A DNA stretch of 64,000 nt from an uncultured virus (IMG/VR IMGVR_UViG_3300030101_003884) (lineage: Duplodnaviria > Heunggongvirae > Uroviricota > Caudoviricetes): the IMG/VR virus record IMGVR_UViG_3300030101_003884; one strand, given 5' to 3'. The notes beneath the pieces were generated by a model. It was not told the DNA's origin. It saw only the letters and a list, made by a program, of their open reading frames with translations, and did not search any database. Made by a program: the position numbers and the translations under genes. Numbering within the stretch: position 1 is the stretch's first letter; every line of letters starts with the position of its first letter. Positions 12,025 to 28,450 of this stretch are shown piece after piece.

Positions 12025-12171
12025 ACCGTTTGGGACCCTAGTATATGTGTATATCCTACTTTGTAAACCTCTTTGTCTAGCAAAGCTGTCAGTTTTAACG
12101 CGCTTTGCCTGGCGCGATTTTTGTTTTTATGTTCGTAATTTCAATGAGCCTTGTAAGATTGGAACGCGGGG

Positions 12172-12197
12172 ACACGTGGCGCGTTAGCGCCACGTGT
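12172..12197 (-). other. 11-bp perfect GC-rich hairpin at end of small-gene cluster
   Basis: ACACGTGGCGC-GTTA-GCGCCACGTGT (UAAC loop on minus strand), no U tract. Confidence 0.6.
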
Positions 12198-12203
12198 TAG
12201 AAT

Positions 12204-12452: not shown

Positions 12453-12771
12453 CTGCGTCACTCCCTATTGCTTTGTATTCAGAGTATTCAATGATCTTTT
12501 GATACTCATTAAATAAATCGTTGTGTTTAACTTTAAAATTTTCTTTATCAAAATTTTTTCTTTTACGATTTATTTTTTGAACTCCAAAACTATTTCCATG
12601 TTCATCTTGAACAATGATTAAGTTTTGATTTGTTCTATCAAATACATTCACAATATTTTGTTTCAATGTATCTAACTCTTTACTCAGTCTATTTGCTTTT
12701 AGCTTTAGTTGAGCGTATGCAAGGACTGATTTTTTTTCGTCTTGCTTTAGCTTTCTTATTGCATTTGGCAT
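12442..12771 (-). CDS. Hypothetical coiled-coil (putative early) protein
   Basis: 109 aa; AAGAGGT RBS. Confidence 0.65.
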   Translation of the reverse strand: MPNAIRKLKQDEKKSVLAYAQLKLKANRLSKELDTLKQNIVNVFDRTNQNLIIVQDEHGNSFGVQKINRKRKNFDKENFKVKHNDLFNEYQKIIEYSEYKAIGSDADAQ

Positions 12772-12849
12772 TTTTACCTCTTTAGTTAATTATACAAATC
12801 TTATGATTTGCCCTTACTTCTTATATCTTATCAACTCCCATTACAATAG

Positions 12850-13053
12850 TTAATTTAACTTTTTTTTATTTAATTTTAATATTGGTTCTACCTCTAGTTT
12901 TACAAATTCATCTCCCAATATCTCGGATAATCTCCCTGCCAACTCCTGCATTTGTGCAGTCATTTTATCTTGTTCTAACTGTCCACGAGAACGAGGCGAG
13001 GAACGAGGCGAGGCGACATTGTCGCCTCGCTTTTTATTATTTGGCATTACCAA
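12850..13053 (-). CDS. Hypothetical protein (start uncertain)
   Basis: C-terminal half looks helical; N-terminal half runs through CGAG repeats and a hairpin. Confidence 0.35.
   Translation of the reverse strand: MVMPNNKKRGDNVASPRSSPRSRGQLEQDKMTAQMQELAGRLSEILGDEFVKLEVEPILKLNKKKLN
13008..13035 (+). terminator. Intrinsic terminator-like hairpin antisense to surrounding genes
   Basis: GCGAGGCGAC-ATT-GTCGCCTCGC-TTTTT. Confidence 0.5.
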
Positions 13054-13475
13054 CTACACCAATATTCTACGACCTTATTCTCAGAGATCGCTTGTTCGCA
13101 GAATTTTAAAAACTTTGTGTCTTGCTCTTTGTACTCCTTGACACTATCCTCTTGGAACTGTTGCCCCCAGAAGAAACCATCTTCGGCAGGGTAGTCAGCA
13201 AAGTCTTTCTGTATCTGTTCAGCTAACTCTTTTACAACTTCCTCAGTCATATAACATGGTGCTTCTTGATCAGCATTAAAACCTAGATGGGACAGATGTC
13301 CCTCTATGTTTTCAGCAGGGTTTTGCTCTGCCCATTTCTTCGCCATGAACTGTTGTAGTCTTGCGTGTTTTCTCCAAACGAAAATGTTGTTATTATCTCC
13401 GTAATCATCTTCGTTGTAGTATTTTTCCCAATTGACATTAGTGCCTCTTAGGTGTGCGTGTTGGTCTAATCCCAT
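13047..13475 (-). CDS. Conserved phage hypothetical protein
   Basis: MGLDQ...WRKH...GFFWG...YWCSW pattern; own promoter-like sequence upstream. Confidence 0.7.
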   Translation of the reverse strand: MGLDQHAHLRGTNVNWEKYYNEDDYGDNNNIFVWRKHARLQQFMAKKWAEQNPAENIEGHLSHLGFNADQEAPCYMTEEVVKELAEQIQKDFADYPAEDGFFWGQQFQEDSVKEYKEQDTKFLKFCEQAISENKVVEYWCSW

Positions 13476-13510
13476 AACTTTTCCTTTTGTTAATTGTTAG
13501 TTTGTTTCTT

Positions 13511-13539
13511 CTCTTATCAACTCCCATGTATGATTGCAA
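13511..13539 (-). promoter_or_regulatory. Putative sigma70 promoter containing a repeated 15-mer
   Basis: TTGCAA-N17-TAAGAG; TGGGAGTTGATAAGA also occurs at 12826-12840. Confidence 0.5.
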
Positions 13540-13673
13540 CAATTATCTTTTAGAATTATTCTAAACTAGAAATGCAAACCATTTGGCTTACCAGCAGAAG
13601 TTCCTGCGCCTGAAGGATCCGTCCTGAGCACGCTGCTGGTGATGCCAGTCTTATTTAATGCCGAGCGAGAGAT

Positions 13674-13784
13674 CTAACCGAAAGCTGCAACGAGCGAGAG
13701 GCATAGGATGAAGGTGAACCAGCCAGTGCCTCTGGGGTAAAGAATGAGAAAGAACAGATACGCACTAACTATTCCGAGAACCAC
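13674..13784 (-). CDS. Hydrophobic 36-aa micropeptide (not in ORF track)
   Basis: GTG start; (M)VLGIVSAYLFFLILYPRGTGWFTFILCLSLVAAFG. Confidence 0.5.
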   Translation of the reverse strand: MVLGIVSAYLFFLILYPRGTGWFTFILCLSLVAAFG

Positions 13785-13995
13785 GGGTTCTTCCAGCTGC
13801 TGCAGGTGAATCCTTCACTTCAGACTCCGCCCACGTATTTCCATTTGCAATGCAGCGCGAGCCCCGGCCACCAGTAAGAGCGTATACTTTACCAGCTTCA
13901 GGTTTGTCCCGCAGCCGGTCCTGCGAGGACCAACCACCAGGTGGTGCATTCTCCCTATTGATATCTTTCACGAGCTTCTTAAGTGTTGTCTTCAT
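13765..13995 (-). CDS. Hypothetical (putative early) protein
   Basis: 76 aa; strong AGGAGG RBS. Confidence 0.6.
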   Translation of the reverse strand: MKTTLKKLVKDINRENAPPGGWSSQDRLRDKPEAGKVYALTGGRGSRCIANGNTWAESEVKDSPAAAGRTRGSRNS

Positions 13996-14004
13996 CTTTT
14001 CCTC

Positions 14005-14079
14005 CTATATGTTAATTGAAATAATTCCTGTGCCGAAGAGTACGGCCAGGTAAACGATGGTTGTGTATACTATAATCAT
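14005..14079 (-). CDS. Hydrophobic 24-aa micropeptide (not in ORF track)
   Basis: MIIVYTTIVYLAVLFGTGIISINI; AGGAG RBS. Confidence 0.55.
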   Translation of the reverse strand: MIIVYTTIVYLAVLFGTGIISINI

Positions 14080-14095
14080 TGCTCTCCTAATTTAA

Positions 14096-14147
14096 ACGCA
14101 TCAGCTGTAGAACTACATATCCAAGTTTCCGCCCACAGCTAACGCGC
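14096..14147 (-). ncRNA. Structured 5' leader (16-bp stem, 5 G-U pairs)
   Basis: Arms 14096-14111 and 14132-14147 pair fully only on the minus strand; begins at predicted transcription start. Confidence 0.55.
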
Positions 14148-14153
14148 AGACCT

Positions 14154-14182
14154 TACATAAGACCTGATGGGATATATGTCAA
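14154..14182 (-). promoter_or_regulatory. Putative sigma70 promoter
   Basis: TTGACA-N17-TATGTA. Confidence 0.6.
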
Positions 14183-14373
14183 GAGCTATTTTTTATTTTT
14201 TTTAATCTTTCTTCAAATGACCACCTTTTGTCAAAGGGTAGTTCCCGTACCACAGCTTCTACCAGCTCCTGAAGGGATCGGTTCTGCTGCGTGAGCTCAT
14301 CTAGTTTCTTATTATATGAACGAGCTTTGTTCTCTCCTCGAACGAGATCGAGAGCATCGAAATCTATTGCCAT
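14179..14373 (-). CDS. Hypothetical coiled-coil protein
   Basis: 64 aa; AAGGAG RBS. Confidence 0.6.
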   Translation of the reverse strand: MAIDFDALDLVRGENKARSYNKKLDELTQQNRSLQELVEAVVRELPFDKRWSFEERLKKIKNSS

Positions 14374-14490
14374 ATTGTTTCTCCTTTTCCACTAATGACC
14401 TTACACTTTTCTTTCCTGCTGTCCAGAACTTTTCAGGAGATCCCAGCTCCTGAAGCACGCTGCGCGGGGTATGCCAGCTGATGGTTTGAC

Positions 14491-14714
14491 CGAGAACGAG
14501 AACCGAGCTTTGCCCGAGAACGAGAACGAGACCCAGCAGCACGGTCCCGTCACCAGGCTACGCTAACTAAGAGGTAAATCGTAACGTAGCCAGGAAACGA
14601 GAACGAGCTTCCTGCTGCTCAGGGAGGAGATCCCAGCTCCTCCAGCAGGTGATGCTGGATGGTTGACCACTGACCGGTAGCCGAGAACGAGCAACGAGGA
14701 ACGAGAGAACGAGG
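14491..14714 (+). repeat. Clustered strand-biased (AA)CGAG repeats
   Basis: CGAG at 14491, 14497, 14504, 14515, 14521, 14527, 14598, 14604, 14682, 14688, 14695, 14702, 14710. Confidence 0.8.
14556..14591 (-). ncRNA. Candidate anti-RBS hairpin RNA A
   Basis: 10-bp stem with one G-U; loop/3' arm UUUACCUCUUAGUUA complementary to RBS at 12773-12788. Confidence 0.45.
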
Positions 14715-15017
14715 ATCAGTGAACACGGACACCGGTCTATACAGTTTAAGAGACCTCTGCGAAGGGGTCTCTTTCAAGATAAAAACAACTCCACCAGCTT
14801 TAATATATCGGTTTATCCATACAATTTGCCACTTGTTTAACTTAGGATAGCTGAGATCATCTGACTTAAGTTCAATCCAAAAAACACCTTTTTTATTTAC
14901 ACCATGTATATCGGGAATACCATTAATTGTGCTAGATTCTATGCGAGTTAAAAAACATTCACTAAGTCCTTTTTTTACTTTTTGCCAAAGTAAACTTTCT
15001 TTGTTTTTATCAGACAT
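14619..15017 (-). CDS. VRR-NUC/Holliday junction resolvase-like nuclease
   Basis: RIE...GIPD...FWIELKS...Q.W...AGG PD-(D/E)XK pattern. Confidence 0.75.
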   Translation of the reverse strand: MSDKNKESLLWQKVKKGLSECFLTRIESSTINGIPDIHGVNKKGVFWIELKSDDLSYPKLNKWQIVWINRYIKAGGVVFILKETPSQRSLKLYRPVSVFTDPRSLVPRCSFSATGQWSTIQHHLLEELGSPP

Positions 15018-15019
15018 TA

Positions 15020-15343
15020 TTAACTAAGTTTTTTTATTTCTTTAATCACTGAATTAGGAATTATAGTTGTATTACCAATAGATTCAATCTCTGTTTTGTT
15101 GTCGTTATATGAGTAATCTCCAAAAATTCTTGTAACACCTTTTGCTTGACTTAGGAGATGACCTTTGGTGATGCAGGTAGCAAGTTTTGATTTCATGACA
15201 TCATTAAAACTGCTCCAACTACTATCAGAAACAATATCATACCATTCAACAGACACCATTGGATACTTGTCTATTTCTTGTTTTGCTTTTTTTGGCATTG
15301 ATATTTTTTTCTTATTCATCGATCTCAATTTTAATAGTTCCAA
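15020..15343 (-). CDS. Conserved phage hypothetical protein
   Basis: VEWYDI...CITKGHL...TTIIPNSVIKEI. Confidence 0.6.
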   Translation of the reverse strand: MELLKLRSMNKKKISMPKKAKQEIDKYPMVSVEWYDIVSDSSWSSFNDVMKSKLATCITKGHLLSQAKGVTRIFGDYSYNDNKTEIESIGNTTIIPNSVIKEIKKLS

Positions 15344-15402
15344 TTTGTGTAGTAATAGTGGAGTTATGAACTTGATTAAATGCGTCTAACCAATCAGACC
15401 AA

Positions 15403-15921
15403 CTAGCCTTGTTCAATTTCTGCAACGTTTTCTGACTTAACTTCAATTGTTTTGGCATTGTATCCATCGATTTTGTTGGATAGCTCTTCCAATTTTTTTT
15501 CAAGTTGTTCACGTGACATACCCTCCAGACCAGTTACCGTAACTTCTTTCCTATCTACGTAAGCACCAGCTAATTGTCCTGACCTGTACTCAGCATTGAT
15601 AGCAGCAGCATATTGTTTTTCTTTCTCTGCTGAATTAGCAATTCGTTCTAATCTTTTGTATCTTCTTAAGTTGTCACTTTCATATTTTTTTACTTCTTGA
15701 TCGAATCTTTTATCGTAAAACTTTGCAATATGGGGATTGACTTTCCTATTTAATAATTGTGATGCATGAGACCTTGCAGTCTCAACACTTTTGCTTTCAT
15801 AACCTGCGCGTTTCAATGCTTCAGCTTGTGTAATGTTACCATGCTCTGCAACTAATATCTCCACAAACATTCTTTGTTTTGGAGTCAACTCGTGCTCAGT
15901 TTTTAATGCGTTTTTTTTCAT
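15403..15921 (-). CDS. terS: Terminase small subunit
   Basis: LTPKQRMFVE...AEALKRAGY...ASQLL HTH; AAAINAE...GQLAGAY. Confidence 0.8.
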   Translation of the reverse strand: MKKNALKTEHELTPKQRMFVEILVAEHGNITQAEALKRAGYESKSVETARSHASQLLNRKVNPHIAKFYDKRFDQEVKKYESDNLRRYKRLERIANSAEKEKQYAAAINAEYRSGQLAGAYVDRKEVTVTGLEGMSREQLEKKLEELSNKIDGYNAKTIEVKSENVAEIEQG

Positions 15922-16136
15922 TATTTTAATTTGTTAATTGCTTTTACAATATTTCTTTTAATAGAAAGATCTTTTTCAAATTTTAATTTATTTTTAAGTC
16001 GATTTGAAACACCACTCTTAATATCTTTTTTTGCTTCAGCTTTAGTACCACCAGATTTTCTAACTATATCTGAAGATTTCCTACCACCACCTTTAAAATA
16101 TTCTTTCATGGTGTTAAATAAGATTTTTTTGTACAT
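15921..16136 (-). CDS. Small Lys-rich protein
   Basis: 71 aa; TAATG overlaps at both ends; N-terminus paralogous to upstream gene. Confidence 0.6.
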   Translation of the reverse strand: MYKKILFNTMKEYFKGGGRKSSDIVRKSGGTKAEAKKDIKSGVSNRLKNKLKFEKDLSIKRNIVKAINKLK

Positions 16137-16567
16137 TAAATAAACCTACCCCTTTTGGCCTTAAATATACCACCTTTAGCTTTACGTCCAATTCTTTCTG
16201 ACAAAAACTTTCTTACTGATTGTGATATATCTTCCTGTATAGCCTGTCTTTGTTTTTTAGGTAGTGTAATCATCATAGATTTACCTTTTTTATCAGAGGC
16301 ATAAGCTTTACCAACAACATTTATTTTTGGGCCACCTCTTGGAAGACTTTTGGTTTTTGGAGCTGAAAGGTATGCAGCTTTGTCCATGAATTTAGTAGAT
16401 CTAACTTGTTTTTTAAAAGCACGTTTTTTTAAACCATATGGCTCAACTCCAGTTCCTCTAATTCCACGTTTGGCATCTTTTATAGCACGTCTGACTTGTG
16501 ACTTATGCTTTCTGTACATTTTACGGAATCCCTCTTTTACCGTATTAAATATTATTTTTTTCATCAT
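16136..16567 (-). CDS. Lys/Arg-rich protein (probable start 16567)
   Basis: MMKKIIFNTVKEGF...RKAKGGIFKAKRGRFI; the longer track ORF runs into the repeat array. Confidence 0.6.
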   Translation of the reverse strand: MMKKIIFNTVKEGFRKMYRKHKSQVRRAIKDAKRGIRGTGVEPYGLKKRAFKKQVRSTKFMDKAAYLSAPKTKSLPRGGPKINVVGKAYASDKKGKSMMITLPKKQRQAIQEDISQSVRKFLSERIGRKAKGGIFKAKRGRFI

Positions 16568-16641
16568 AATATTTTTACTATATAGATTTTTTAGACTAAT
16601 GACTATAACCCTACAACCAACTGTTTGCGTTCCCGCAAGAG

Positions 16642-16748
16642 TGGTGTATCCCAGATACACCATAGATACACCATAGATACACCATAAAAACACACTTAAA
16701 GTATTGATATATAAGCATTATTCTTCTTCGGATACACCAGATACACCA
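16642..16748. repeat. Iteron-like GATACACCA array (putative replication origin)
   Basis: Inverted copy 16642-16650; GATACACCATA x3 at 16654-16686; GATACACCA x2 at 16731-16748. Confidence 0.75.
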
Positions 16749-16979
16749 CTATTACCCCCTGAGCACTTTTTTATTTTAATTACTCTAGAATATCTATATA
16801 TAGAAAATTAATTGATCCGGTTTCCGGTGTCCATTAACCCTTATTTTCTTAGTTTTTTCCCATCACCATTAAAACAGGACACTTTAGATGAACTAGAACC
16901 GTTTGGTCAATTAAGTGCCACTTATGGCTAACTGAACATCGGCTAGCTTTAAATTAACCCCCTTAAAAAGGAGACTTAA

Positions 16980-17402
16980 ATGTCAATAATAGATAAAAAT
17001 AACAAACTTTCTCAGTGGGCTACTGAGGATTTAAGAAAAAAAGCAAATTCAGAATTTGATAGTATCATACTTCAAACTTTTTTGCGTATAGCTCATATAG
17101 CCAAAAAATATGCTCCAAAGCATTCAAGATACCTCTGTGCAGGTATTTTAACGGTAATTTATTGTATTTGGGTATGGATACCATTAAAACATAGATTTAT
17201 TCATTGGTGGAGCGTCTATGAGCTTCAAAAAGCTATAAAAAAATACTTAAAATTTGATATGTCAATTGATAATTTAGAACGTTATTGCACAAAACTATGT
17301 GATGGCCACTATTTATTAGTAAAAAGAGGAAAAAACTCCTGGTTGTATAAAGTTCGTCCAACTAAAAATCAAGATTATAATTTGACCTCACATATCAATT
17401 AG
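16980..17402 (+). CDS. Orphan membrane protein on opposite strand
   Basis: 140 aa; AAGGAG RBS; one hydrophobic segment (LCAGILTVIYCIWVWIPL). Confidence 0.55.
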   Translation: MSIIDKNNKLSQWATEDLRKKANSEFDSIILQTFLRIAHIAKKYAPKHSRYLCAGILTVIYCIWVWIPLKHRFIHWWSVYELQKAIKKYLKFDMSIDNLERYCTKLCDGHYLLVKRGKNSWLYKVRPTKNQDYNLTSHIN

Positions 17403-17410
17403 GATACTCT
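17382..17410 (+). promoter_or_regulatory. Putative sigma70 promoter with no downstream ORF
   Basis: TTGACC-N17-TACTCT. Confidence 0.5.
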
Positions 17411-17411
17411 T

Positions 17412-17490
17412 TTAATATGGATATTTTTTCCATGTTAATTTGTTACGCTCTTGGGACTACCTTTTTTGCTCTCTTGCTAGTCCCAGGAGT
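17412..17490 (+). ncRNA. Candidate small RNA B (two hairpins)
   Basis: 13-bp stem 17447-17459/17478-17490 with 2 G-U and an 18-nt C/U loop; upstream 10-bp stem 17412-17438. Confidence 0.5.
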
Positions 17491-17512
17491 AAAATTTGTT
17501 AGACCCCCATGA

Positions 17513-17953
17513 CTAAGCTAATCTTTTTTTATTTTCTTCATCAATTCTCTTTTTAATTTCTCTTCTCTCTTCCTTATTTTCAGCTTCACGGTACAATCTA
17601 TAAAGCTCTCTATAATTTAACCAATGATTCTGTAATTTAGTGAAATATATTTTTTTACATTTTACTAATTTTTTAAACTCGTCTCTAATCATATCAGGAT
17701 CCATATCAGCACCCCAACAAACGTCCTGGAAATCTTCAGAATTATCATAAAACCATTTATACGCATCTTCTTTCCAATAAGTTTCTTTTTTAAAACTAGA
17801 CGGATTCATGACATCTTCTAGCGCCTGGACAATAATTGCTTGAAAAAGTCTTTGTTCTGAAATTACTTTTGATTTAGTTAATTCCATGGCCAATTTAATG
17901 CCCAAAAGTTTCAACAAGCTTGGTGAGCAAGTCATAAAATTTAAGCACCTCAC
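17513..17953 (-). CDS. Conserved phage hypothetical protein (start uncertain)
   Basis: EQRLFQAIIVQALED...AYKWF...DFQDVC. Confidence 0.6.
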   Translation of the reverse strand: MRCLNFMTCSPSLLKLLGIKLAMELTKSKVISEQRLFQAIIVQALEDVMNPSSFKKETYWKEDAYKWFYDNSEDFQDVCWGADMDPDMIRDEFKKLVKCKKIYFTKLQNHWLNYRELYRLYREAENKEERREIKKRIDEENKKRLA

Positions 17954-18101
17954 GTTTTGGATAATTTAATTTTCGTGATTCTTTGTATTGCGAAAATATT
18001 AAATCAATAAAATCAGTTCTCTCCTGACCTTCCATCTCTGCCACATATGAAATAGTCTCAGTAGCTAATTTTTCTGAACGATCTGCCATCTGCATAACCA
18101 C
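17895..18101 (-). CDS. Hypothetical protein
   Basis: Helical ~65 aa ORF in operon. Confidence 0.5.
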   Translation of the reverse strand: MVMQMADRSEKLATETISYVAEMEGQERTDFIDLIFSQYKESRKLNYPKREVLKFYDLLTKLVETFGH

Positions 18102-18147
18102 GATGCGGGAAAAGATATGGATTGTGAAAAGGCACCGTGGTTACACA
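18091..18147 (-). ncRNA. Candidate anti-RBS hairpin RNA C
   Basis: 16-bp stem with 3 G-U on minus strand; 25-nt loop contains CAUAUCUUUUCC, complementary to the mRNA at 19868-19879. Confidence 0.5.
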
Positions 18148-18392
18148 TTTTTAACGACCAGCTTGAGCCCAGCAGCTTCTGCTGCTTTCTTCCTACCTGA
18201 CCGCCATCTAGCCTCGATTTTTTCGAGAAAAGAAAGACTAAAATTTCCTAAACCAAAGTCATTCCCACAATACAACTGAAACATCAAACTTGTTAACTCA
18301 TCATAAGTTTTTTTATTTGGACATACCATTACAAGTTTATCCAATGCTTGATTTAATGCTTCTTCACTGCTTTTTTTAACAGCTTTACCCAC
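18141..18392 (-). CDS. Hypothetical protein
   Basis: 83 aa; AAGGA RBS. Confidence 0.6.
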   Translation of the reverse strand: MGKAVKKSSEEALNQALDKLVMVCPNKKTYDELTSLMFQLYCGNDFGLGNFSLSFLEKIEARWRSGRKKAAEAAGLKLVVKNV

Positions 18393-18529
18393 AAAATATC
18401 CTTTTGTTAAAAGTTAATTTTATGATTCGTTGTTCGGTGAAAATAAAGTGTTTTGAAAGCCCCACTTGTTTCATTTAGGCTTAGGAATACGTTTCTATTT
18501 AATATTTGATTATAATTTGTATTGCAAGT

Positions 18530-18558
18530 AAAAAAAAGGCCCAGTCTCCCGGGCCTTT
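18530..18558 (-). terminator. Rho-independent terminator
   Basis: Minus strand AAAGGCCCGG-GAGA-CTGGGCC followed by T8. Confidence 0.8.
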
Positions 18559-18600
18559 CTTCGTCATCTCGGTTAAAGGTTAACCATCCAACCTCATAGA

Positions 18601-18816
18601 CTATTTACCATTAAGCAGCTTTTTGCCCTCTGATAGTAAATTCTGTTTCATGTTCTCATAAGATTTGCCTTCTTTTTTTGCAATCTTACGAATCTCATCA
18701 TCGACTAGCTTTGCAATCATGGATCCTGGTCGTCTGAACCCTTGTTTGCCCATTGCTCTTATGATGGTGTAGGACTCAATGTCCACAGCACATGACTTCC
18801 ACCTTTCTATATCCAT
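18601..18816 (-). CDS. Putative ribbon-helix-helix DNA-binding protein
   Basis: WKSCAVDIESYTIIRAMGK...RRPGSMIAKLVD strand-helix-helix pattern. Confidence 0.5.
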   Translation of the reverse strand: MDIERWKSCAVDIESYTIIRAMGKQGFRRPGSMIAKLVDDEIRKIAKKEGKSYENMKQNLLSEGKKLLNGK

Positions 18817-18827
18817 TGTCCTTACTC

Positions 18828-19616
18828 CTATATCTCTAGATACTCTTTGCTTTTATAAAATTCAACCAAATTAATTTTATTTTTTGGTGTGAGTCCCGCA
18901 TTATAAATACGTTCAATAATAGCCACATAATCAGCCGTAGAAGTTCCAGTTAAAAACCACGAAGATCTAGTCTTACAAGCTTTAAGAAAACGTGAGTGCT
19001 CAAATTTAGGATGTCTATGAGCCACAATGTATGAGCACACCATCGATCTTTTGAAACGTTTGTTTTTTTCTGACTCCATACCATAAAAGTATTTTTTCAG
19101 CTGCATCAATCTACCACCAATTTTATCACAGTGTTCAATACCACCTGCTGGAATTATAAACTGACCTGTTTTAAAATCTTGGCTTATTCTTGACCAGAGT
19201 GATGCTTGTTTTAATAAAAGGACTACAGCTTCAGCAACATTTATTCCATACTGAGCCATTTTGTTTCTACAAATTTTGTAGTCCATTTTATTTCTAGCAC
19301 AATGTTGATTTAAATAATCATTCATTGACCAGTTTTTACGACCTGTGTTTAATCTTGCAACATCAAGAATATCATCAGAGTCCATAATGATGTAAGGAAT
19401 CTTCAGGTCTAATTGTTTTCTTGCTTCCAAAGTATGTTGGCCATCGATGACTTCCATATTTTTATTTACACGAATTGGATCGTATAAATCTTTTTCAGCA
19501 ATTAGTTTTTTAAGCTGCAACACATGTGTAGGATCTACAGGTCTGTTGCCTCTAGTTTTTTTGAACCTCGTGTAATCCGTAGTTTCAAAAAATTTATTTT
19601 CTATTTTTTTATTCAT
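18828..19616 (-). CDS. ParB/Srx-like N-terminal domain protein
   Basis: GNRPV...PIRVNKNMEVIDGQHTLEA. Confidence 0.75.
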   Translation of the reverse strand: MNKKIENKFFETTDYTRFKKTRGNRPVDPTHVLQLKKLIAEKDLYDPIRVNKNMEVIDGQHTLEARKQLDLKIPYIIMDSDDILDVARLNTGRKNWSMNDYLNQHCARNKMDYKICRNKMAQYGINVAEAVVLLLKQASLWSRISQDFKTGQFIIPAGGIEHCDKIGGRLMQLKKYFYGMESEKNKRFKRSMVCSYIVAHRHPKFEHSRFLKACKTRSSWFLTGTSTADYVAIIERIYNAGLTPKNKINLVEFYKSKEYLEI

Positions 19617-19633
19617 TATCTTTTCCTCCTTGG

Positions 19634-19870
19634 TTATTTAACGAATATTTCTTTATCTTTTCTGCCTGGTATCCATGCTTTTACTAATGGTGCATCATCT
19701 AACCCATCCATACTGTCTATATAAACAGTAAGTGGACCTGCATGAGTTTTCATTTTAATGTAACAACATCCTTTTGATCTAATGTCAAAATGGATACCTT
19801 TTGCATATCTATCTTCAAACTTATATTTTTTTCTAATTTGAAGTTCTTCTTTGTCTCTATGTTTAGACAT
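19634..19870 (-). CDS. Hypothetical protein flanked by 20-bp direct repeats
   Basis: Start MSKHRDK after AGGAGG RBS. Confidence 0.6.
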   Translation of the reverse strand: MSKHRDKEELQIRKKYKFEDRYAKGIHFDIRSKGCCYIKMKTHAGPLTVYIDSMDGLDDAPLVKAWIPGRKDKEIFVK

Positions 19871-19886
19871 ATCTTTTCCTCCTTGG

Positions 19887-19997
19887 TTAAAAAAACATTG
19901 TATAGAATAATCCACCCATCATAAGTAAAAATACTTTAGGTGAAATTAACATTACAATTAATAAAAGAAAAAAGTATAAAACGTTTTTATTGTACAT
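19887..19997 (-). CDS. Hydrophobic 36-aa micropeptide (not in ORF track)
   Basis: MYNKNVLYFFLLLIVMLISPKVFLLMMGGLFYTMFF fills the gap between two genes. Confidence 0.55.
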   Translation of the reverse strand: MYNKNVLYFFLLLIVMLISPKVFLLMMGGLFYTMFF

Positions 19998-20286
19998 CTC
20001 GTACCCTCACAACTGCTTTTATATCTTCTTCATCTTGGATTGCTTGTATCTCTGACCATACTAAATCAGAAGCAACCCATTGATTTATTGGATACACAGG
20101 TGCAGCAAATTCAAATTCCAATCTTACAGTTGCTAACCGTTTGACTTGGTCTTTAAAATGTTGTTCTGTATTATCCATGCTTTTTCCATCAGCAGTTAAG
20201 TGCTGCGTCTTGGAAAGTATGTCGTCAAGTTTTTCAACAAACTCTCTAAACTCTGGTGATTTTGTTTTTAAATTAATTTTTGGCAT
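19987..20286 (-). CDS. Hypothetical protein
   Basis: 99 aa; GGGGGA RBS; overlaps previous stop. Confidence 0.6.
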   Translation of the reverse strand: MPKINLKTKSPEFREFVEKLDDILSKTQHLTADGKSMDNTEQHFKDQVKRLATVRLEFEFAAPVYPINQWVASDLVWSEIQAIQDEEDIKAVVRVRDVQ

Positions 20287-20557
20287 GTATCCCCCAAAGT
20301 TGAAATTTATTTATTACATGACTTAACATTTCGTGAAACTTTACTTTGCCATCTGTTGGATCATTAACTATAATTTTTTTATAGTAATCTCCATTAACAG
20401 AAAGTAAAAGCACACCAGTTTTTTCGCTGAATGAAACTGAAAATGAATGCTCAGCTTCAATAGATTTAGGTTTTATTTCCCATTCAGGTCTTAAAACCAA
20501 AGCCTCTCTCAGGTTTTCAGCCGCACCTGAAGTAGCTTCCTTTTTATCTTTAGACAT
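20273..20557 (-). CDS. Hypothetical protein
   Basis: Probable start MSKDKK after AGAGG RBS. Confidence 0.6.
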   Translation of the reverse strand: MSKDKKEATSGAAENLREALVLRPEWEIKPKSIEAEHSFSVSFSEKTGVLLLSVNGDYYKKIIVNDPTDGKVKFHEMLSHVINKFQLWGIHAKN

Positions 20558-20646
20558 GATAACCTCTTTGTTAATATTCATGAAAAGATATATAATTATT
20601 TTCATGGGATTTGCAAGTAAATAAAAAGATAGGATAATATAGGACT

Positions 20647-20877
20647 ATGAAGTATATTTTGATATTACACCTCTGCAGTATGATAACAAATACATGCATG
20701 GATCCCCATATTTCAGGTTATCAATTCACAAATCATTACGATTGTGCAATATCAGGTTATGCAGTATCACAAAAAACTCTTAAATTACTTGTAAAAGACG
20801 AGGAATTTGGACTTGATCGAATAAACAATGAAAAATTAGCCATTAGATTTGAGTGCAGACCCCTTGATGCTGCTTAG
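20647..20877 (+). CDS. Small Cys-containing, possibly exported protein
   Basis: Hydrophobic N-terminus, C-x5-C...C...FEC pattern. Confidence 0.6.
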   Translation: MKYILILHLCSMITNTCMDPHISGYQFTNHYDCAISGYAVSQKTLKLLVKDEEFGLDRINNEKLAIRFECRPLDAA

Positions 20878-20879
20878 TA

Positions 20880-20909
20880 TTGCAATACCATCGTATTTTG
20901 ATATATAAT
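20880..20909 (+). promoter_or_regulatory. Putative sigma70 promoter, probably leaderless transcript
   Basis: TTGCAA-N18-TATAAT; ATG only 5 nt downstream. Confidence 0.6.
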
Positions 20910-20914
20910 ATTAC

Positions 20915-21193
20915 ATGAAGCTATATCGCGTCCAAGCAAAATATAAAAACATATACATTAATGAGATGCTTGAGGCTGAGAACGATAAAGCCGTCCTTGA
21001 GAAGTTTTCAAAGAAGGTTGACTCAGGTGACGTAACAGAAAGAGAAGGTGCTGGGTTTGAAAATCCAGATATTCTTTTTTTAACCTTCGAGGAGGTTGAC
21101 CGAGATGCAACTACAAAAGTTAATATCGGAGAAACTTCAGTTGGAGTCTCAATGGGCCAGCAAAGCGTTGGAACAGGGAAGAGTAACTCCTGA
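20915..21193 (+). CDS. Hypothetical protein
   Basis: 92 aa ORF behind promoter. Confidence 0.55.
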   Translation: MKLYRVQAKYKNIYINEMLEAENDKAVLEKFSKKVDSGDVTEREGAGFENPDILFLTFEEVDRDATTKVNIGETSVGVSMGQQSVGTGKSNS

Positions 21194-21293
21194 CATGAAG
21201 TGGATTGATATAAAGATCAAAAATCTTAGAACTAAGATAAATGATCAAAGTGTTGAAGACGCTAAAAAAGGTCTTCTTGATATAGCTAGTTAA
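21096..21293 (+). CDS. Small coiled-coil protein
   Basis: GGAGG RBS; likely start MQLQKL. Confidence 0.55.
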   Translation: MTEMQLQKLISEKLQLESQWASKALEQGRVTPDMKWIDIKIKNLRTKINDQSVEDAKKGLLDIAS

Positions 21294-21471
21294 ACTAGTT
21301 TTAAAAAAATTCATTAAAATCTTAGGCTATTCTCGTCTCTAGTCAAAAAGCATTCAGTGTCGCAGCTAGAATTAAACCCCTGCTGAAGGTGATCGTTTAC
21401 TATTCAATAAAATAAAAAATCAAAAAATCGCTCATGGTATAATAGTAAAAATAAAATATAGGAGAGCAGAT

Positions 21472-21606
21472 ATGTTTGAATGGAAACACCCAAGTTACTA
21501 CGCAGAGTTAAGAAAGGAACTTAAAAAATTGCAAGAGTCCGAAAGCGATGCGGAGTCGGAGTGCAATGAGGACAAGGAATCCGATTTGAAGAACCAAGAA
21601 AAGTAG
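21472..21606 (+). CDS. Small acidic-tailed protein (44 aa, not in ORF track)
   Basis: TGGTATAAT extended -10 and AGGAG RBS; MFEWKHPSYYAELRKELKKLQESESDAESECNEDKESDLKNQEK. Confidence 0.6.
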   Translation: MFEWKHPSYYAELRKELKKLQESESDAESECNEDKESDLKNQEK

Positions 21607-21644
21607 AAATAATTTTAGAGCCCTTGCAAGTTTTGCAGGGGCTG

Positions 21645-23513
21645 CTATTCCTTAGCTTCTCCCCAGGATCGTCCGAGGGCAATATCAACTTTGGAAGGAA
21701 CTTTAAGTTTGTCGATTGCATTTTCCATTATCTCTTTTACGCCATTTATATCTTTTTCATTGTCTATTGAAAAACATAATTCATCATGTATTTGAAGTAA
21801 AGGTTTATACCCTGCCTTATAACATTGTATCATTGCTTCCTTAGTTTGATCAGCTGCAGATCCTTGAATTAATCTGTTTAAAGCTTTGTAAGTAAAAGCT
21901 CTTCTTATGTTATTTCCATAAATAGCCTTAGCCTCCTCGTATTGCATAGCTTTATTCATTCCGAAGGTTGCAGGCTCCCACATGTCAAATCGGCATTTAC
22001 GGCCCTTTATTGTTCGAATAAACCCGTATTTTGAAGCTGAGCTAGATACATCTGTAGCTAATTTTTTAACAAATGGAACTCTTTCACCATACTGTCTTAA
22101 TAGCGACTCAGCACGATCTTTTGAAATACCTAATTCTTTACCTAATTTATTTTTCCCCATGCCATAAAATAACCCAAGATTAATAGTTTTGGCTTGAGAT
22201 CTAGTTATTCCTGCCATATCAGCAACAATTTGATGAAAGTCTGCAGCTTCATTCTTGTAGGCTTCAATGAACTCTGCTGCACCTTCAAAATGGTCATGAA
22301 CAGATGCAGCATAGTGTGCAACAAGCCTAGGTTCTTGTTGTGAGTAATCAAAGCTACCCCATTGTCTACCTTCTTCAGGTAAAAACAAACTTCTAATTTT
22401 ATCTCCATATTCTTTGTTTCTTGCAGGAATCTGTTGCAAGTTAGGGTTTGAATATGATAAACGTCCTGACACAGTTCCACCTTGGTCAGATCTTAGTTGA
22501 TTTATTTCAGAATGTATTCTACCTTTGTGAACATAACGTTGAATGGAGTCTATAAATGTTGAGTGAAATTTATTTATTTCTCTTGCTTGTCTTATTAGTT
22601 GCGCTATCGGGTTATCACAGTTTACTAGCCAATTTTGCGTAAAACTTGGTTCGTCACTTTTCGGTGTCCGTGGGTAATCAACACCTATTCTGTCAAACAC
22701 TTGCGCTACAGATCTTGCTGCCCAAATATCAACATCTAAAGTAGTTTGTTTTTTTATTTCATGTAGGATAGATTTTTCTTTACTAACAAATTCTTTTTTT
22801 AAACCTGCTGCTTTTGCTTCATCTACTCTTATACCTCTCCTTCTTGTTTCAATAAGTATAGGTAACAACTCCATCTCCATCTCCCAAACATCATGAAGAC
22901 TTTGTTTTGAAATTTCTGTTTTAAATCTTTCCCATAATCTTAAAGTCAAACCTGCGTCTTGTTCAGCGTAAAAACCAACATACCCTGCAGGTAATCTCCA
23001 AAGGTCAGCTTTTGGGTCTATTCCCCACTCTTTTGCTTTTTCATTTAAAAACGTTTCATTTTTTATTTCTCCAAGATAATCTTTAGCACATGAGTTTAAA
23101 CTGAAGCTAAACCTGTTTTCATTAATTAAAGCCGCTGCGATCATAGTATCAACAATTTGTCCCCTAATCTCAAACCCATTTACTAGCAGCCAACCTACGT
23201 CATAACTTGCATTGTGAAAAATTTTAGTCGCTGGTGTTTTTAAAATATCTTGCATCCAAGCAGTGGTGATGGCCAGGTCCATGTTACCGCCAGCATCGTG
23301 CTGTATTGGGAAATACCATTGTTGACCAAAAGCAGCTACTGCAAAACCCACTATCCCACCATCAAAAGTTGCCCAACCAGCACCTCTAGTTTTTATGTTT
23401 GGATCTTTTGTTTCAAGGTCAATTGCAATTTCTTTGGCTTGAGATAGGTCTGGATATTCTGATGGACATATCCAATCACTATCATTATAAACAAAATTTA
23501 ATTGATGCGTCAT
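21645..23513 (-). CDS. polA: Family A DNA polymerase (3'-5' exonuclease plus polymerase), Leu762 type
   Basis: IDLET ExoI, FHNASYD, DYSQQEPR motif A, RSQAKTINLGLFYG motif B, QIHDE motif C. Confidence 0.95.
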   Translation of the reverse strand: MTHQLNFVYNDSDWICPSEYPDLSQAKEIAIDLETKDPNIKTRGAGWATFDGGIVGFAVAAFGQQWYFPIQHDAGGNMDLAITTAWMQDILKTPATKIFHNASYDVGWLLVNGFEIRGQIVDTMIAAALINENRFSFSLNSCAKDYLGEIKNETFLNEKAKEWGIDPKADLWRLPAGYVGFYAEQDAGLTLRLWERFKTEISKQSLHDVWEMEMELLPILIETRRRGIRVDEAKAAGLKKEFVSKEKSILHEIKKQTTLDVDIWAARSVAQVFDRIGVDYPRTPKSDEPSFTQNWLVNCDNPIAQLIRQAREINKFHSTFIDSIQRYVHKGRIHSEINQLRSDQGGTVSGRLSYSNPNLQQIPARNKEYGDKIRSLFLPEEGRQWGSFDYSQQEPRLVAHYAASVHDHFEGAAEFIEAYKNEAADFHQIVADMAGITRSQAKTINLGLFYGMGKNKLGKELGISKDRAESLLRQYGERVPFVKKLATDVSSSASKYGFIRTIKGRKCRFDMWEPATFGMNKAMQYEEAKAIYGNNIRRAFTYKALNRLIQGSAADQTKEAMIQCYKAGYKPLLQIHDELCFSIDNEKDINGVKEIMENAIDKLKVPSKVDIALGRSWGEAKE

Positions 23514-23689
23514 TAATTTTTTTTCCTATCTTTTTGTCCTTCTTTATTTAATCTATATAAACCAGAGTCAATTGGTATATTTATTTCAAGCATAAAACAG
23601 TCTGCACATTTATAAACTTTTTTATCTATTATCACCGCAAACCCTTCATCACATTGCTCACAAACTATTTTATCATTATTTTTTACCAT
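23513..23689 (-). CDS. Small zinc-ribbon protein (58 aa, not in ORF track)
   Basis: CEQC...CADC; TAATG-coupled to polA start. Confidence 0.55.
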   Translation of the reverse strand: MVKNNDKIVCEQCDEGFAVIIDKKVYKCADCFMLEINIPIDSGLYRLNKEGQKDRKKN

Positions 23690-23936
23690 TTTCTTTTAAA
23701 TGTTCTATTTCTAAATCACAATAATGTTTTATCTTTTGTAAATCTTCAATTGATTTTCCTTTAAACAAATATCTACATACATATTTTATCACATTAGCTT
23801 GAAATGGATTTAACCCATTCTTTCTAATAAATGTCCAGGGTTGAATGAGAAAATGTTTATAGTGACTCCCGCCTACCTGAGTGTCTTGTGGAAATGTTTC
23901 ATCAAACATATCTTTGTTTGTCATAATTAGCCTCAT
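23676..23936 (-). CDS. DUF3310-like (T7 gp1.7-like) protein
   Basis: QVGGSHY...QANVIKYVCRY..KG..EDLQKIKHY. Confidence 0.8.
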   Translation of the reverse strand: MRLIMTNKDMFDETFPQDTQVGGSHYKHFLIQPWTFIRKNGLNPFQANVIKYVCRYLFKGKSIEDLQKIKHYCDLEIEHLKENGKK

Positions 23937-25545: not shown

Positions 25546-27058
25546 TTGTTTTAGGTAATGCTACCACCCAATGTCTAGATTGAATACCTTTAAATTTAGA
25601 CTTAGGTTGCGCACCACCAGTTTCTAAAAACTTCGTACACTCTTTTTCATTCCAATTATAACCCATTTTTTTCATAAAGTTTTTAAAGGTTTCTAATTTA
25701 AATCTCATTTCCAAATCATCTTTCCAAATGTTACCAGAATCTATTTGATCAAATTCTGTAGTATCTTCAACGTCCTCCAAGAATCGTGACATTCTAGAAT
25801 TAAATACATCTTCAAGTTCTTCCTTGCCATCAAAACCTTCCATGTCTTGTTTGTTAGACATCAACTCTTCTAACCAATCTCTATATGGATCTGGATCTCT
25901 TTTAGTGGGTTTCAACGATCTCCAAACTATATCGTAGTTAAGCAGCGCTTCACCAAGCAATTGCTGTTGGTATAATTGTTTTGTTGATAGTCTAATTGAT
26001 TTGCCTTGTATAGGTAATATCCAATAAGGTTCTGGGTAAGAATTTACTTTTGTAAGTTTACCTACTTCAGGTAATGCCTCGTTTTTACCAATACCGTGTT
26101 GTCTTCTTAAACATGTTGCAGATGAACAATGCATTCTTGCAATAGATGTTTTACATTTGTAAGTGTATTCTTTGTTTTCTACACCTTTAAAAATATTATT
26201 TAATTCCTGTGGATGTAGTGGTTCACTACAAACTTTTGGCATCATAACTCTTGTCCAATCTTGATACATTACAGGGTCTGGGTTTATTTTTTTTGCTAAC
26301 ACAGCTACATTAAACATAGCATCATTACGGCCTTCACCTTTTTGTACTTTATTTTTCATAAAATTAACAACACATGGTGGCCAATCTTTTGTTTCGTCAT
26401 CTTGAAATACCTTAAGTTTTTTAAATTGTGCAGGTGTAAGTCTATATTCAGATACAAACTTAAATAAATCTTCTAATTTTATTGAGTTACCATCATTGTC
26501 CATAGCAACTCTAGTTGTCATGTGAGCTTTTTGATATGGTAAATTTACAAAGTTACCTTTTCTTTTTTGATCCCAACTCTCAGGTGTCAAATCAACTTCA
26601 TCCTGTGCAGGATAAATATCTGTAGTAGAATCATTAACACCAAGATCAGATGCAATCTCAATTAATTTTTTACGCATTGATGATGCTGCAACAACACCAT
26701 CAATAAATAAAATTAAATGGAGTCCGTTTGATTTTGATCTGAACGGGATGAGTGGGTACTTCCTTTTCCGTATAATTTGTATAACTTCTTTATGTTGTAT
26801 ATTGTAGCGATCAACATCGATGACCCCCCAACTACATGAATTATCATCTCTGATAGGGACAGATCCATAATATTTTTCTCCTTTTAAATGTTGGATCCAA
26901 TGCTCTTTAGTCATTGGTTCAGGTTCTACCCAATGTCTGAATTCTTGTTTACCGTCTCTATCACGTTTGTGACCAAGAGGTGTTGAAGCACCAAAATATG
27001 TAGAAGAGCCTTGGAAGAGTTCTACAAACTCTCCCAAGGTTTTGTCAAGTAGGTCCAT
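25484..27058 (-). CDS. AEP-family primase(-polymerase) with PriCT-like domain
   Basis: VIDVD, SKSNGLH, GNFVNLPY, GEGRNDAMF. Confidence 0.8.
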   Translation of the reverse strand: MDLLDKTLGEFVELFQGSSTYFGASTPLGHKRDRDGKQEFRHWVEPEPMTKEHWIQHLKGEKYYGSVPIRDDNSCSWGVIDVDRYNIQHKEVIQIIRKRKYPLIPFRSKSNGLHLILFIDGVVAASSMRKKLIEIASDLGVNDSTTDIYPAQDEVDLTPESWDQKRKGNFVNLPYQKAHMTTRVAMDNDGNSIKLEDLFKFVSEYRLTPAQFKKLKVFQDDETKDWPPCVVNFMKNKVQKGEGRNDAMFNVAVLAKKINPDPVMYQDWTRVMMPKVCSEPLHPQELNNIFKGVENKEYTYKCKTSIARMHCSSATCLRRQHGIGKNEALPEVGKLTKVNSYPEPYWILPIQGKSIRLSTKQLYQQQLLGEALLNYDIVWRSLKPTKRDPDPYRDWLEELMSNKQDMEGFDGKEELEDVFNSRMSRFLEDVEDTTEFDQIDSGNIWKDDLEMRFKLETFKNFMKKMGYNWNEKECTKFLETGGAQPKSKFKGIQSRHWVVALPKTSEHKNKDVKFVKAKAAWEDN

Positions 27059-27059
27059 A

Positions 27060-27851
27060 TTAAAATGGAGTTTTTTCTACTTGTTCTTCGTTTTTGTGAT
27101 TAGCTCTCACTGCGCCTTTTTTACATGACTCATAAAAGTCAAAGGCTGCTTTGATTGTTTCTTCGCTCCCCACTTGTCCTGTATGCTCTATCTCCCAGCC
27201 GTACCAAGAACCTAAATTGTTCTTTTCAAGAACAGTTTTAAGTTTATAGCTTTGAGTAAATGGTGCTGGTCTAAAAAAACCTTTACCATCTTTTTTCTTC
27301 GCTCTAAGAGACATCATCATGGAATTCCACTTTTTAGATTTTTTTCTTTGAGTAGATTTCATTGTGATTAAAGCCGTAGAAGATTTATCTGGTTCAACTA
27401 CCATCACATAATGCGAAGCAGTCTCCTCTACATAGTTACCATTTTCCAATCTATCTTTTCCATCATCACCTCTAGTAGTTTTAGACATGATGTCTGAATC
27501 AGATGGATATACATTTACAGGAGCGACAGCACCTTTATCTCTGTCTTTCCATTCAATGTATTCGAGTTTATAAAAGCAAGGAATCACCTCGATACCTTCT
27601 GCTCCATTATACAACTCATTGGTCACAGTATTGTAAATCATTCCTGGTCTTGCATCAGCTATAAACTGACTATCACCTTGTGTGACTTGTGGTGATAATT
27701 GTCCAAGAACTTTAAGAAATGGTAACGCTAGACTTTTTGAATCTACGTTCTCAAATCCTTCGTCACCGAATTGCTCAATATTAATTGATGCAACTGCACC
27801 GGTTTCTTTTTTAATCGATACTTCGTTCGATTGTTCGTCTTTTAGTTTCAT
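27060..27851 (-). CDS. Putative ssDNA-binding/annealing protein
   Basis: LPFLKVLGQLSP; replication-module position; C-terminal PF. Confidence 0.5.
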   Translation of the reverse strand: MKLKDEQSNEVSIKKETGAVASINIEQFGDEGFENVDSKSLALPFLKVLGQLSPQVTQGDSQFIADARPGMIYNTVTNELYNGAEGIEVIPCFYKLEYIEWKDRDKGAVAPVNVYPSDSDIMSKTTRGDDGKDRLENGNYVEETASHYVMVVEPDKSSTALITMKSTQRKKSKKWNSMMMSLRAKKKDGKGFFRPAPFTQSYKLKTVLEKNNLGSWYGWEIEHTGQVGSEETIKAAFDFYESCKKGAVRANHKNEEQVEKTPF

Positions 27852-27862
27852 AGTATTACCTA

Positions 27863-28411
27863 TTATTTGTTAGTTATTTTCGTTTTATTTGCGATGTACA
27901 CACCAAACAAATCAAAAGGCAATTTCTTGCCGTTTTCAACTTGTTCTTTAACAAACGCTTTTAAAGTCATAGGTTCAACTTTTTCTTTTTTATTATAGTT
28001 GAATCCAAACTTTTCACAGACGCTTATTAATTCAGAGACTTGGTTATCTTGTCCTCTGTTAAATGAAGCTGTAACAGTATTTTTGATAAGATCTTCAAAA
28101 CCGTTATGCCTCAAATAGCCGAAGGCCTCGTCAACACGTGACTCAGGAATTTTTGCTGCGTAAAAAGGTTTAACTTCTACAGTCGAACCATCATTTAACT
28201 TCAGCAAAGATACACCAGCTTCCTGCATCATCTCTGGAATTGTTCTCTCCTCTAAATCACGAGCTTTGTTTTTTAGAGTAGATAATTTTTCTTCTTCATC
28301 TTCGATATTTTTTCGAAGACGTTTAAGTTCATTACATTTATCTGAAATAGATCTAACGCTATCTTGGCTAAGATCTATATTAGACATTTTTTCAATATCT
28401 ATTTTTTCCAT
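27863..28411 (-). CDS. Conserved replication-module protein
   Basis: EAFGYLRHNGFEDLIKN...VEPMTLKAFVKEQ; GGAGG RBS. Confidence 0.6.
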   Translation of the reverse strand: MEKIDIEKMSNIDLSQDSVRSISDKCNELKRLRKNIEDEEEKLSTLKNKARDLEERTIPEMMQEAGVSLLKLNDGSTVEVKPFYAAKIPESRVDEAFGYLRHNGFEDLIKNTVTASFNRGQDNQVSELISVCEKFGFNYNKKEKVEPMTLKAFVKEQVENGKKLPFDLFGVYIANKTKITNK

Positions 28412-28450
28412 ATTTCCTCCGCTGTTGTGATTATTTTATTTTCTTGACCT

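Follow-up and report, generated by a model that had tools for sequence, protein, structure and literature searches.

The c4 RNA of phages P1 and P7 is a structured phage RNA, cut from a longer transcript, that blocks translation of a second phage mRNA by means of exposed loops complementary to the ribosome-binding region of that mRNA, and RNAIII of Staphylococcus aureus is a regulatory RNA with C-rich loops directed against Shine-Dalgarno (SD) sequences. In the replicase operator of RNA phage MS2 and in the com/mom system of phage Mu, hairpins that sequester a start codon couple or gate translation. Two further reports describe a UCCC-type motif in the 3' untranslated region of the S. aureus icaR mRNA that pairs with the SD sequence, blocks initiation and makes an RNase III substrate (PMC3868564), and the cuckoo (CcsR/ar14) RNAs of Alphaproteobacteria, in which two to four adjacent hairpins each carry the loop motif CCUCCUCCC (PMC4615179). 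Here we describe three intergenic stem-loops, A, B and C, in the uncultured virus record IMGVR_UViG_3300030101_003884, the whole 64,000-nucleotide (nt) stretch of which is referred to as the window. They are real, conserved and uncatalogued structures, and their loops may pair with translation start regions of the same phage.

Hairpin A (14553-14594, minus strand) has a core stem of 10 base pairs (bp; 14556-14565/14582-14591) closing a 16-nt loop (14566-14581, CGAUUUACCUCUUAGU), and the stem is extended by CC/GG past a U-U mismatch; its fold energy is -13.0 kcal/mol on the minus strand, against -8.8 on the other. Element B comprises two hairpins on the plus strand (-30.8 kcal/mol, against -21.3 on the other strand): B1 (17412-17438), with a 10-bp stem and a 7-nt loop followed by UUUGUU, and B2 (17447-17490), with a 13-bp stem and an 18-nt loop (17460-17477, CCUUUUUUGCUCUCUUGC). 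Hairpin C (18091-18147, minus) has a 16-bp stem and a 25-nt loop (18107-18131), and folds at -21.6 kcal/mol, against -13.9 on the other strand. All three loops are C/U-rich, with pyrimidine contents of 0.69 (A), 0.89 (B2) and 0.80 (C). In these respects the elements are as a preliminary description of the sequence had presented them; the complementary sites that it listed also exist, all of them at start regions, and the ribosome-binding-site contexts that it reported as shared between genes matched by one loop (GGAAAAGAT and GGAGAGCA) are real.

Set beside the c4 RNA, for which Rfam has the family C4, the loops show a complementarity to phage ribosome-binding regions that stands out from chance for C (p 0.02-0.03), is marginal for A and does not exceed chance for B in the window; relatives retain it for A and, in part, for C. 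There is no match to the Rfam C4 family, no immunity region is involved, and we are dealing with three unrelated hairpins of a lytic-type pelagiphage, two of them inside coding operons. Each loop presents an unpaired C-rich motif of the UCCC anti-SD type: UUUUCCC in C, ACCUCUU in A (UUUUCCCUCUUUG in most relatives) and UUGCUCUCU in B. As icaR shows, an mRNA-borne anti-SD motif like those of A and C can do such a job (PMC3868564), although organisms and sequences differ, the icaR pairing occurs within one mRNA (PMC3868564) whereas the partners here lie 1.5-7 kb apart, and a terminator-like hairpin (18530-18562) separates loop C from its partners. Varying stems, a fixed anti-SD-like loop motif, several copies per genome and occurrence in the host's bacterial class are points of likeness to the cuckoo RNAs as that report describes them (PMC4615179). 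The loops of A, B and C nevertheless differ from one another, the hairpins are 0.6-2.9 kb apart rather than adjacent, and CCUCCUCCC is absent from all three loops, with one 1-mismatch match at 14622-14630. Judged by these comparisons the elements belong to neither the c4 nor the cuckoo family. Only C resembles the MS2 and Mu com/mom hairpins, in that the downstream start codon is paired in its stem, with no free SD sequence and directly behind a small conserved gene; it differs in its 25-nt loop with a fixed motif.

To compare related sequences we used 80 viral loci recovered by searching with the ParB-like protein of the window and 80 more recovered with the 109-amino-acid (aa) protein of the gene starting at 12771 (individual loci carry the prefix L). 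In the first set of 80, many of which are too short to reach B or A, blastn finds hairpin A in 40, element B in 56 and hairpin C in 73, and all three are conserved beyond their flanking genes. Across 44 distinct sequences hairpin C has a consensus of 15 pairs with an energy of -20.25 kcal/mol; 99.4% of the 660 cells are paired, the only non-Watson-Crick pairs being G-U on this strand, three pairs have changed on both sides, and none of 500 shuffles is as good on every measure; its variable pairs pass via G-U (for example A-U in 31, G-U in 7 and G-C in 6 sequences) and never via A-C, and the opposite strand of the alignment reaches only -5.8 kcal/mol. For B2, six of nine consensus pairs have changed on both sides among 35 distinct sequences (window-plus orientation), with G-U frequent and A-C missing, and the 25 distinct sequences of A have a fixed outer stem, including two compensated pairs, and an inner stem that falls into classes set apart by compensatory changes. 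Folding favours the named strand in 24 of 25 sequences for A, 34 of 35 for B and 43 of 44 for C, or 101 of 104 together. Given the compensatory changes and the better folding of one strand, A, B and C are therefore single-strand (RNA) structures and not DNA palindromes, and by these comparisons they are genuine, conserved and strand-specific, with C/U-rich loop motifs.

Conservation extends into the loops, as the antisense proposal of the preliminary description needed, and in each case the conserved segment is the one complementary to start regions: CCUCUUUGUU in loop A, UUGCUC[U/C]C in loop B2, where the position of the motif within the loop shifts, and the nearly invariant 3' part CCAUAUCUUUUCCC in loop C, of which the motif UCUUUUCCC is fixed in all 44 distinct sequences. 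The 5' half of loop C is variable, with indels of 1-2 nt. The 10-mer AUCUUUUCCC is common to the A and C loops in many relatives. We also note that the class-2 A loops (e.g. L021, L037 and L045) share the 10-mer ATCTTTTCCC with the C loop; the A loop of the window differs.

With a TerL that shares 69.2% identity with its counterpart in Pelagibacter phage HTVC023P and 62.9% with the one in HTVC027P, the window can be assigned to an uncultured HTVC023P-type pelagiphage, and A, B and C are elements of one sub-clade of this group. The covariance model of hairpin C (R1, 100.4 bits) finds no copy in HTVC023P 6500-18800 (13.5 bits, E 3), and in motif searches the A and C cores are absent from that same segment and from HTVC027P 7000-22100. 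HTVC023P does have a B-like hairpin with the same motif in the same kind of place (L081 4210-4245, minus; loop cgAUUGCUCC), the loop of which matches the 22 annotated L081 start regions by at most 7 nt and is uninformative. An Rfam cmscan of the whole window at gathering scores gives no matches, and a search of 12700-18700 with E values up to 1 finds no family for A, B or C; its sole match is a sub-threshold ylbH leader (12933-13040, minus; 25.7 bits against a gathering score of 50, E 0.023), which overlaps a small arginine/serine-rich open reading frame (ORF) and a hairpin and is probably due to chance. Nor do the elements look like Rho-independent terminators, since the loops are 16-25 nt long, against the 3-8 nt typical of such terminators, no U tract follows A or C, and only a weak A/U-rich tail follows B2; a terminator scan of 12000-22000 lists 17 sites, none of which is A, B2 or C. 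Under loose rules (stems of at least 9 bp) the window holds 288 hairpins, and A, B and C stand out by stable G+C-containing stems with large loops, not as hairpins per se. In the pelagiphage literature searched, a scope that left most subscription journals outside, we found no description of such elements, and the published accounts of HTVC023P-type phages that were searched make no mention of intergenic, promoter, hairpin, small-RNA or antisense features.

We then asked how the loops compare with chance, using 300 shuffles per loop and the 89 start regions of the window. The longest perfect run is 10 nt for A, 8 nt for B and 12 nt for C, with fractions of shuffles doing as well of 0.04, 0.71 and 0.027 respectively, and the observed run is reached by 7.7% of 16,397 (A), 90% of 452 (B) and 2.3% of 1,204 (C) equally pyrimidine-rich windows of the same genome. 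The in-window match is above chance for C, marginal for A and at chance for B. The expectation that the loops would match better than shuffled ones is thereby borne out by run length for C and marginally for A, but not for B, and by duplex energy for none of the three. Scored on a matrix built from the start regions of the window, the reverse complement of loop C reaches 8.5 bits, a score at the median of true starts that only 0.11% of the genome attains, and the reverse-complemented loops of B and A fall in the top 0.35% and 0.87% respectively.

The proposed target of loop A is the start region of the 109-aa gene (12442-12771), at 12769-12796 on the minus strand (AACUAAAGAGGUAAAAAUG), with which the loop of the window shares a 10-nt perfect run plus 4-5 nt beyond a bulge. 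A predicted extended -10 element, TGTATAAT, precedes this start region at 12789-12796, so that the stretch complementary to loop A may be the extreme 5' end of that mRNA. In the 31 loci with both partners (19-20 distinct combinations) a complementarity of 10-17 nt is kept, with its peak of 17 nt in L044, and the mean perfect run is about 11 nt to the orthologous 12771 start, against 5.1-6.7 nt to three other orthologous starts. Two lineages (L017/L091 and L155/L159) have private extensions matched between loop and start. When each loop is paired with its own 12771 start or with swapped ones, the own pairs are better (p 0.026 for run length and 0.004 for energy; 0.047 and 0.009 in a second test); the neighbouring start at 14373 gives p 0.29 and 0.012, and two control starts give p 0.20-0.98. 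We regard this as a modest signal suggestive of co-variation. Further downstream, terL (10546-12024) starts without an SD sequence (12022-12024) and is preceded by TTTACA-N16-TATACT (12040-12067), with two G+C-rich hairpins upstream (12171-12198 and 12099-12116); since terL has its own promoter-like site, the 12771 gene is not the head of the terL unit.

Hairpin C lies between an 83-aa gene with a GTG start (18141-18392, minus) and a small, fast-evolving gene (17895-18095, minus). The stop codon of the former (18141-18143) is in the 5' arm, and the first AUG of the latter (18093-18095) is in the 3' arm, with a second AUG (18087-18089) just beyond the stem; in all 44 distinct sequences the stop codon is opposite the first AUG and no SD sequence precedes the start. 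The 83-aa protein is about 90% conserved (mean column identity) in 74 loci, and hairpin C travels with its gene; the coding sequence downstream of C diverges among relatives immediately past the ATG. A structural model of the 83-aa protein has three helices and a basic C-terminus (predicted local distance difference test score, pLDDT, 69.5), a fold that is uninformative, with no Pfam or PHROG match, no usable Atlas match, and all Foldseek matches at E above 4. By its layout, C would be a coupling or operator hairpin, and this predicted cis role is independent of any action in trans. Two other ideas were rejected: a conserved plus-strand peptide encoded in loop C keeps its ATG, but indels of 1-2 nt shift its frame among relatives, and translational bypass across C is contradicted by a last sense codon that changes while no landing codon changes to match it. 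The operon is preceded by a terminator-plus-promoter-like region at 18393-18600 (L074 8040-8204), which places the 83-aa gene first and C before the second gene; within it, a canonical terminator (18530-18562, minus), in which a U tract follows the hairpin, comes first, and between this and the 83-aa gene are a promoter-like site and a leader of about 110 nt that is conserved.

Three start regions, all on the minus strand, were listed as matches to loop C. That of gene 19634-19870 (19868-19890, AACCAAGGAGGAAAAGAUAUG) contains a 12-nt perfect complement, AUG included, and in the six loci with an ortholog 8-13 nt are complementary. That of the ParB-like gene (18828-19616, minus), at 19614-19640 (AACCAAGGAGGAAAAGAUAAUG), has a 10-nt complement in the window; of 65 loci, 32 keep a match of 11-12 nt (21 loci with 12 nt and 11 with 11 nt), another 15 have 9-10 nt, and the remaining 18 have at most 8 nt. 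The sole loop C variant that alters the paired part (CAAUUUC) co-occurs with a complementary start, GAAAUG, in two of three loci. The third, at 13993-14012 (AGGAGGAAAAGAUG), belongs to a 76-aa gene (13765-13995), and here persistence in relatives fails, as detailed below.

Element B differs in its setting. The listed matches of its loop are the start regions of a 24-aa hydrophobic ORF (14006-14080; start region 14078-14095, minus, UUAGGAGAGCAAUG) and of a 44-aa ORF (21472-21606; start region 21455-21474, plus, AUAGGAGAGCAGAUAUG). The former recurs in L003, L009, L010 and L049, and in the latter GGAGAGCAA is kept in 11 of 14 distinct relatives with an orthologous start region. The site at 28400-28414, assigned to the 5' part of B, exists, but it involves B1, which in relatives is a small hairpin at the same place with a different sequence, only the fold being kept. 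Upstream of B lies a control region (16630-16800, plus) with iterons, 3+2 copies of GATACACC in the window and GGGACACC in other sub-lineages, and with predicted promoters, namely an extended -10-like element between the iterons and a second conserved -10-like block, CTCTAGAATATCTATATATAG. This iteron-flanked element between two rightward operons looks like an operator or origin whose binding specificity has been switched between sub-lineages. A 140-aa ORF without a family match (16980-17402, plus) separates the control region from B in the window, and it has a homolog in only 6 of 80 related loci (tblastn); the leftward unit is therefore non-coding in most relatives (74 of 80). In 37 distinct relatives lacking this ORF, B is preceded by conserved small hairpins, the -10-like block and the iteron-flanked extended -10-like element. 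The conserved promoter-like layout suggests that B ends a leftward, mostly non-coding unit giving a stand-alone RNA of about 150-250 nt, with promoters and ends that are predicted.

These observations can be accommodated by a model in which the pyrimidine-rich motif of each loop, as the reverse complement of a phage start region (SD sequence, spacer and, for C, also the AUG), would pair with that region in vivo and block 30S binding, like the anti-SD loops of known regulatory RNAs. The partner of loop A would be the 109-aa gene at 12771, addressed at its leader and start; loop C would recognise the GGAGGAAAAGAUAUG starts of two genes, the ParB-like one and the one just upstream of it, and loop B the GGAGAGCAA starts of two tiny ORFs. 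A and C would be carried within rightward mRNAs, whereas a promoter flanked by iterons would give rise to a short leftward transcript, non-coding in most relatives, that ends in B. C would in addition act in cis, since its stem brings together the stop codon of the gene before it and the start codon, lacking an SD sequence, of the gene after it. The structures, their strand, their conservation and the complementarity are shown by the comparisons above, and inference begins with the pairing in vivo, the direction of its effect, the transcripts and promoters, and any part in timing. We favour this explanation, in which the loops hinder initiation, as plausible and partly supported, although we would not put it quite at an even chance; the case appears strongest for A and, within the window, least for B.

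A number of findings weigh against it. Duplex energies between loops and start regions are no better than those of shuffled loops (fractions of shuffles doing as well or better 0.17, 0.19 and 0.45 for A, B and C), and the runs of loop B in the window are at chance level. Start regions are stereotyped in this phage group, so any anti-SD-like loop will match several, which makes multiple partners likely and specificity hard to prove. For A, two loci (L013 and L096) have the loop variant of the window without the matching start variant, the own-versus-swapped p values would fail correction for the five genes and two measures tried, and the sequences in that test are related, such that a few inherited events are counted repeatedly and the p values are inflated. 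For C, the loop is near-invariant while the ParB-like start varies, own pairs are not distinguished from swapped ones (p 0.21 and 0.30), and the constancy of the loop must therefore have a cause other than that pairing; the match to the 13995 start does not persist among relatives, with runs of at most 6 nt in 25 of 28 loci. The corresponding test for B gives p 0.11 and 0.36, with only 9 loci having both partners. Finally, A and C are inside long mRNAs, and for the two elements themselves we identified no promoter, terminator or processing site and saw no sign of a separate transcript. The public runs listed for 12700-19900 are DNA contigs of marine metagenomes, none of them from RNA.

The preliminary description had gone further, proposing a network of hairpin RNAs addressed to ribosome-binding sites that may time the shut-off of early and middle genes. 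What survives is that the RNA elements are real and that the matches of A, and in part those of C, are kept, but the matches of B are at chance, and both the word network and the claim about shut-off timing go beyond the evidence. A fuller version of antisense control would have a SAR11-phage group without a recognisable RNA polymerase or sigma factor run part of its gene programme through uncatalogued stem-loops, two of them located in the spacers of mRNAs and the third part of a separate leftward RNA whose promoter is controlled by iterons, with extended anti-ribosome-site loops addressing particular starts and C doubling as a coupling device for its own operon; taken as a whole we consider this doubtful.

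An alternative explanation is that the hairpins are cis-acting elements of their mRNAs with loops that bind proteins, and that their likeness to start regions is compositional, arising where pyrimidine-rich loops meet purine-rich, stereotyped starts. This is a possibility that we take seriously and judge nearly as likely as antisense control. C would then be a coupling or operator hairpin for the SD-less downstream start, perhaps bound by the 83-aa protein or by ribosomal protein S1, as would fit the pairing of stop codon and first AUG without an SD sequence in all 44 sequences, the company of a highly conserved gene in 74 loci ahead of a fast-evolving one, and a loop that stays fixed though its proposed targets vary; it does not explain why the complement of loop C has the full layout of SD sequence, spacer and AUG, and the 83-aa protein has no recognisable RNA-binding fold (no match at E below 4). 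A would be a processing or stability element of the G+C-rich island in which it lies, and the 10-mer shared by the A and C loops in many relatives is what a common protein site would give, but A adjoins no start codon, and its 10-17 nt of complementarity to one start, against some 5-7 nt to others, is left unexplained together with the own-versus-swapped signal. B would simply mark the 3' end of the leftward unit. The explanation is also in keeping with the energies of the loop-start duplexes in the window, which match those obtained with shuffled loops.

It is also conceivable, though improbable in our view, that the loops pair with RNAs of the SAR11 host, such as its start regions, and that the phage matches are a side effect of ribosome-binding sequences common to phage and host. 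If the partner were a constant one that is not encoded by the phage, this would account for the fixation of UCUUUUCCC in every distinct sequence while the phage starts vary; the lineage-specific changes that A shares with a phage start, on the other hand, point to a partner within the phage. Much less probable still is that the inverted repeats are DNA sites for a dimeric protein, for instance a ParB-like partition, terminase or origin site: although a ParB-like gene, iterons and terminase genes are nearby, and A lies in a hexamer-repeat island between terS and terL, the stems pass through G-U and not A-C intermediates (none in the 660 cells of C, and the same pattern in B), one strand folds better in nearly all sequences, the conserved sequence is in the loops, and symmetry on both strands is lacking. 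Chance features of AT-rich DNA are the least probable source, since for all the loose-rule hairpins of the window and the chance-level matches of B, the structures are refuted as chance products by their compensatory changes and by being better conserved, in 40-73 of 80 loci, than the genes that flank them.

Three conserved structured RNAs outside the RNA family libraries, each with a defined candidate partner, offer testable handles on how these phages order their gene expression without a polymerase of their own. If antisense control holds, lytic marine phages would join the systems that use anti-SD loops; if the loops bind proteins instead, they would still be new conserved RNA motifs of an ecologically dominant virus group, HTVC023P-type pelagiphages being reported as the most abundant known SAR11 phage group. 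The early genes of the sole HTVC023P-type member with a transcriptome are all reported to be of unknown function.

The window as a whole is AT-rich (about 34% G+C), with nearly every gene on the minus strand. In agreement with what had been claimed, the scan of 82 ORFs, many of which match nothing, revealed neither a recognisable RNA polymerase nor a sigma factor; a tRNA scan of the window found none. Recognisable genes include terS (15403-15921), a VRR-NUC-like nuclease gene (14619-15017), and those for DNA polymerase A, a UvrD-like helicase, an AEP primase, and portal, tail-fibre and lysis proteins. The first 2.65 kb (1-2654) recurs at 61466-64000 with 82-94% identity, and from this head/tail repeat the genome is therefore about 61.5 kb, with the window running into a related, non-identical copy, the origin of which may be a strain mixture, a concatemer or an assembly join. 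Four runs of N, 70 bases in total, are present (34381-34390, 61033-61042, 62182-62191 and 62840-62879).

Hairpin A, which has CUCGUU repeats on either side, belongs to a G+C-rich island (13540-14740, minus) situated between the nuclease gene and terL, where it occupies the stretch from the nuclease gene to the small gene that comes next. The island has about 44% G+C in 1-kb windows, against about 33% in its surroundings. Relatives conserve it, but with indels of lengths not divisible by three, and it could possibly serve as a pac site or processing region or form a long structured RNA. The idea that the CUCGUU repeats are Rho-utilisation sites was dropped, the transcribed strand not being C-rich over G. 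The last 45 or so codons of the nuclease ORF extend into the island, which holds at least seven copies of GAGAACGAG/CUCGUUCUC and a repeated module around GGAGCUGG, the hairpins of which have stems differing by compensatory changes. A fourth strong hairpin (14096-14147, minus), with a 16-bp stem that includes 11 G-C pairs and a purine-richer 20-nt loop, is directly upstream of the start region of the 24-aa hydrophobic ORF. An exact 16-nt direct repeat (12826-12841 and 13512-13527; ATGGGAGTTGATAAGA on the minus strand) sits about 40-55 nt upstream of two different gene starts and may be a shared promoter or activator site.

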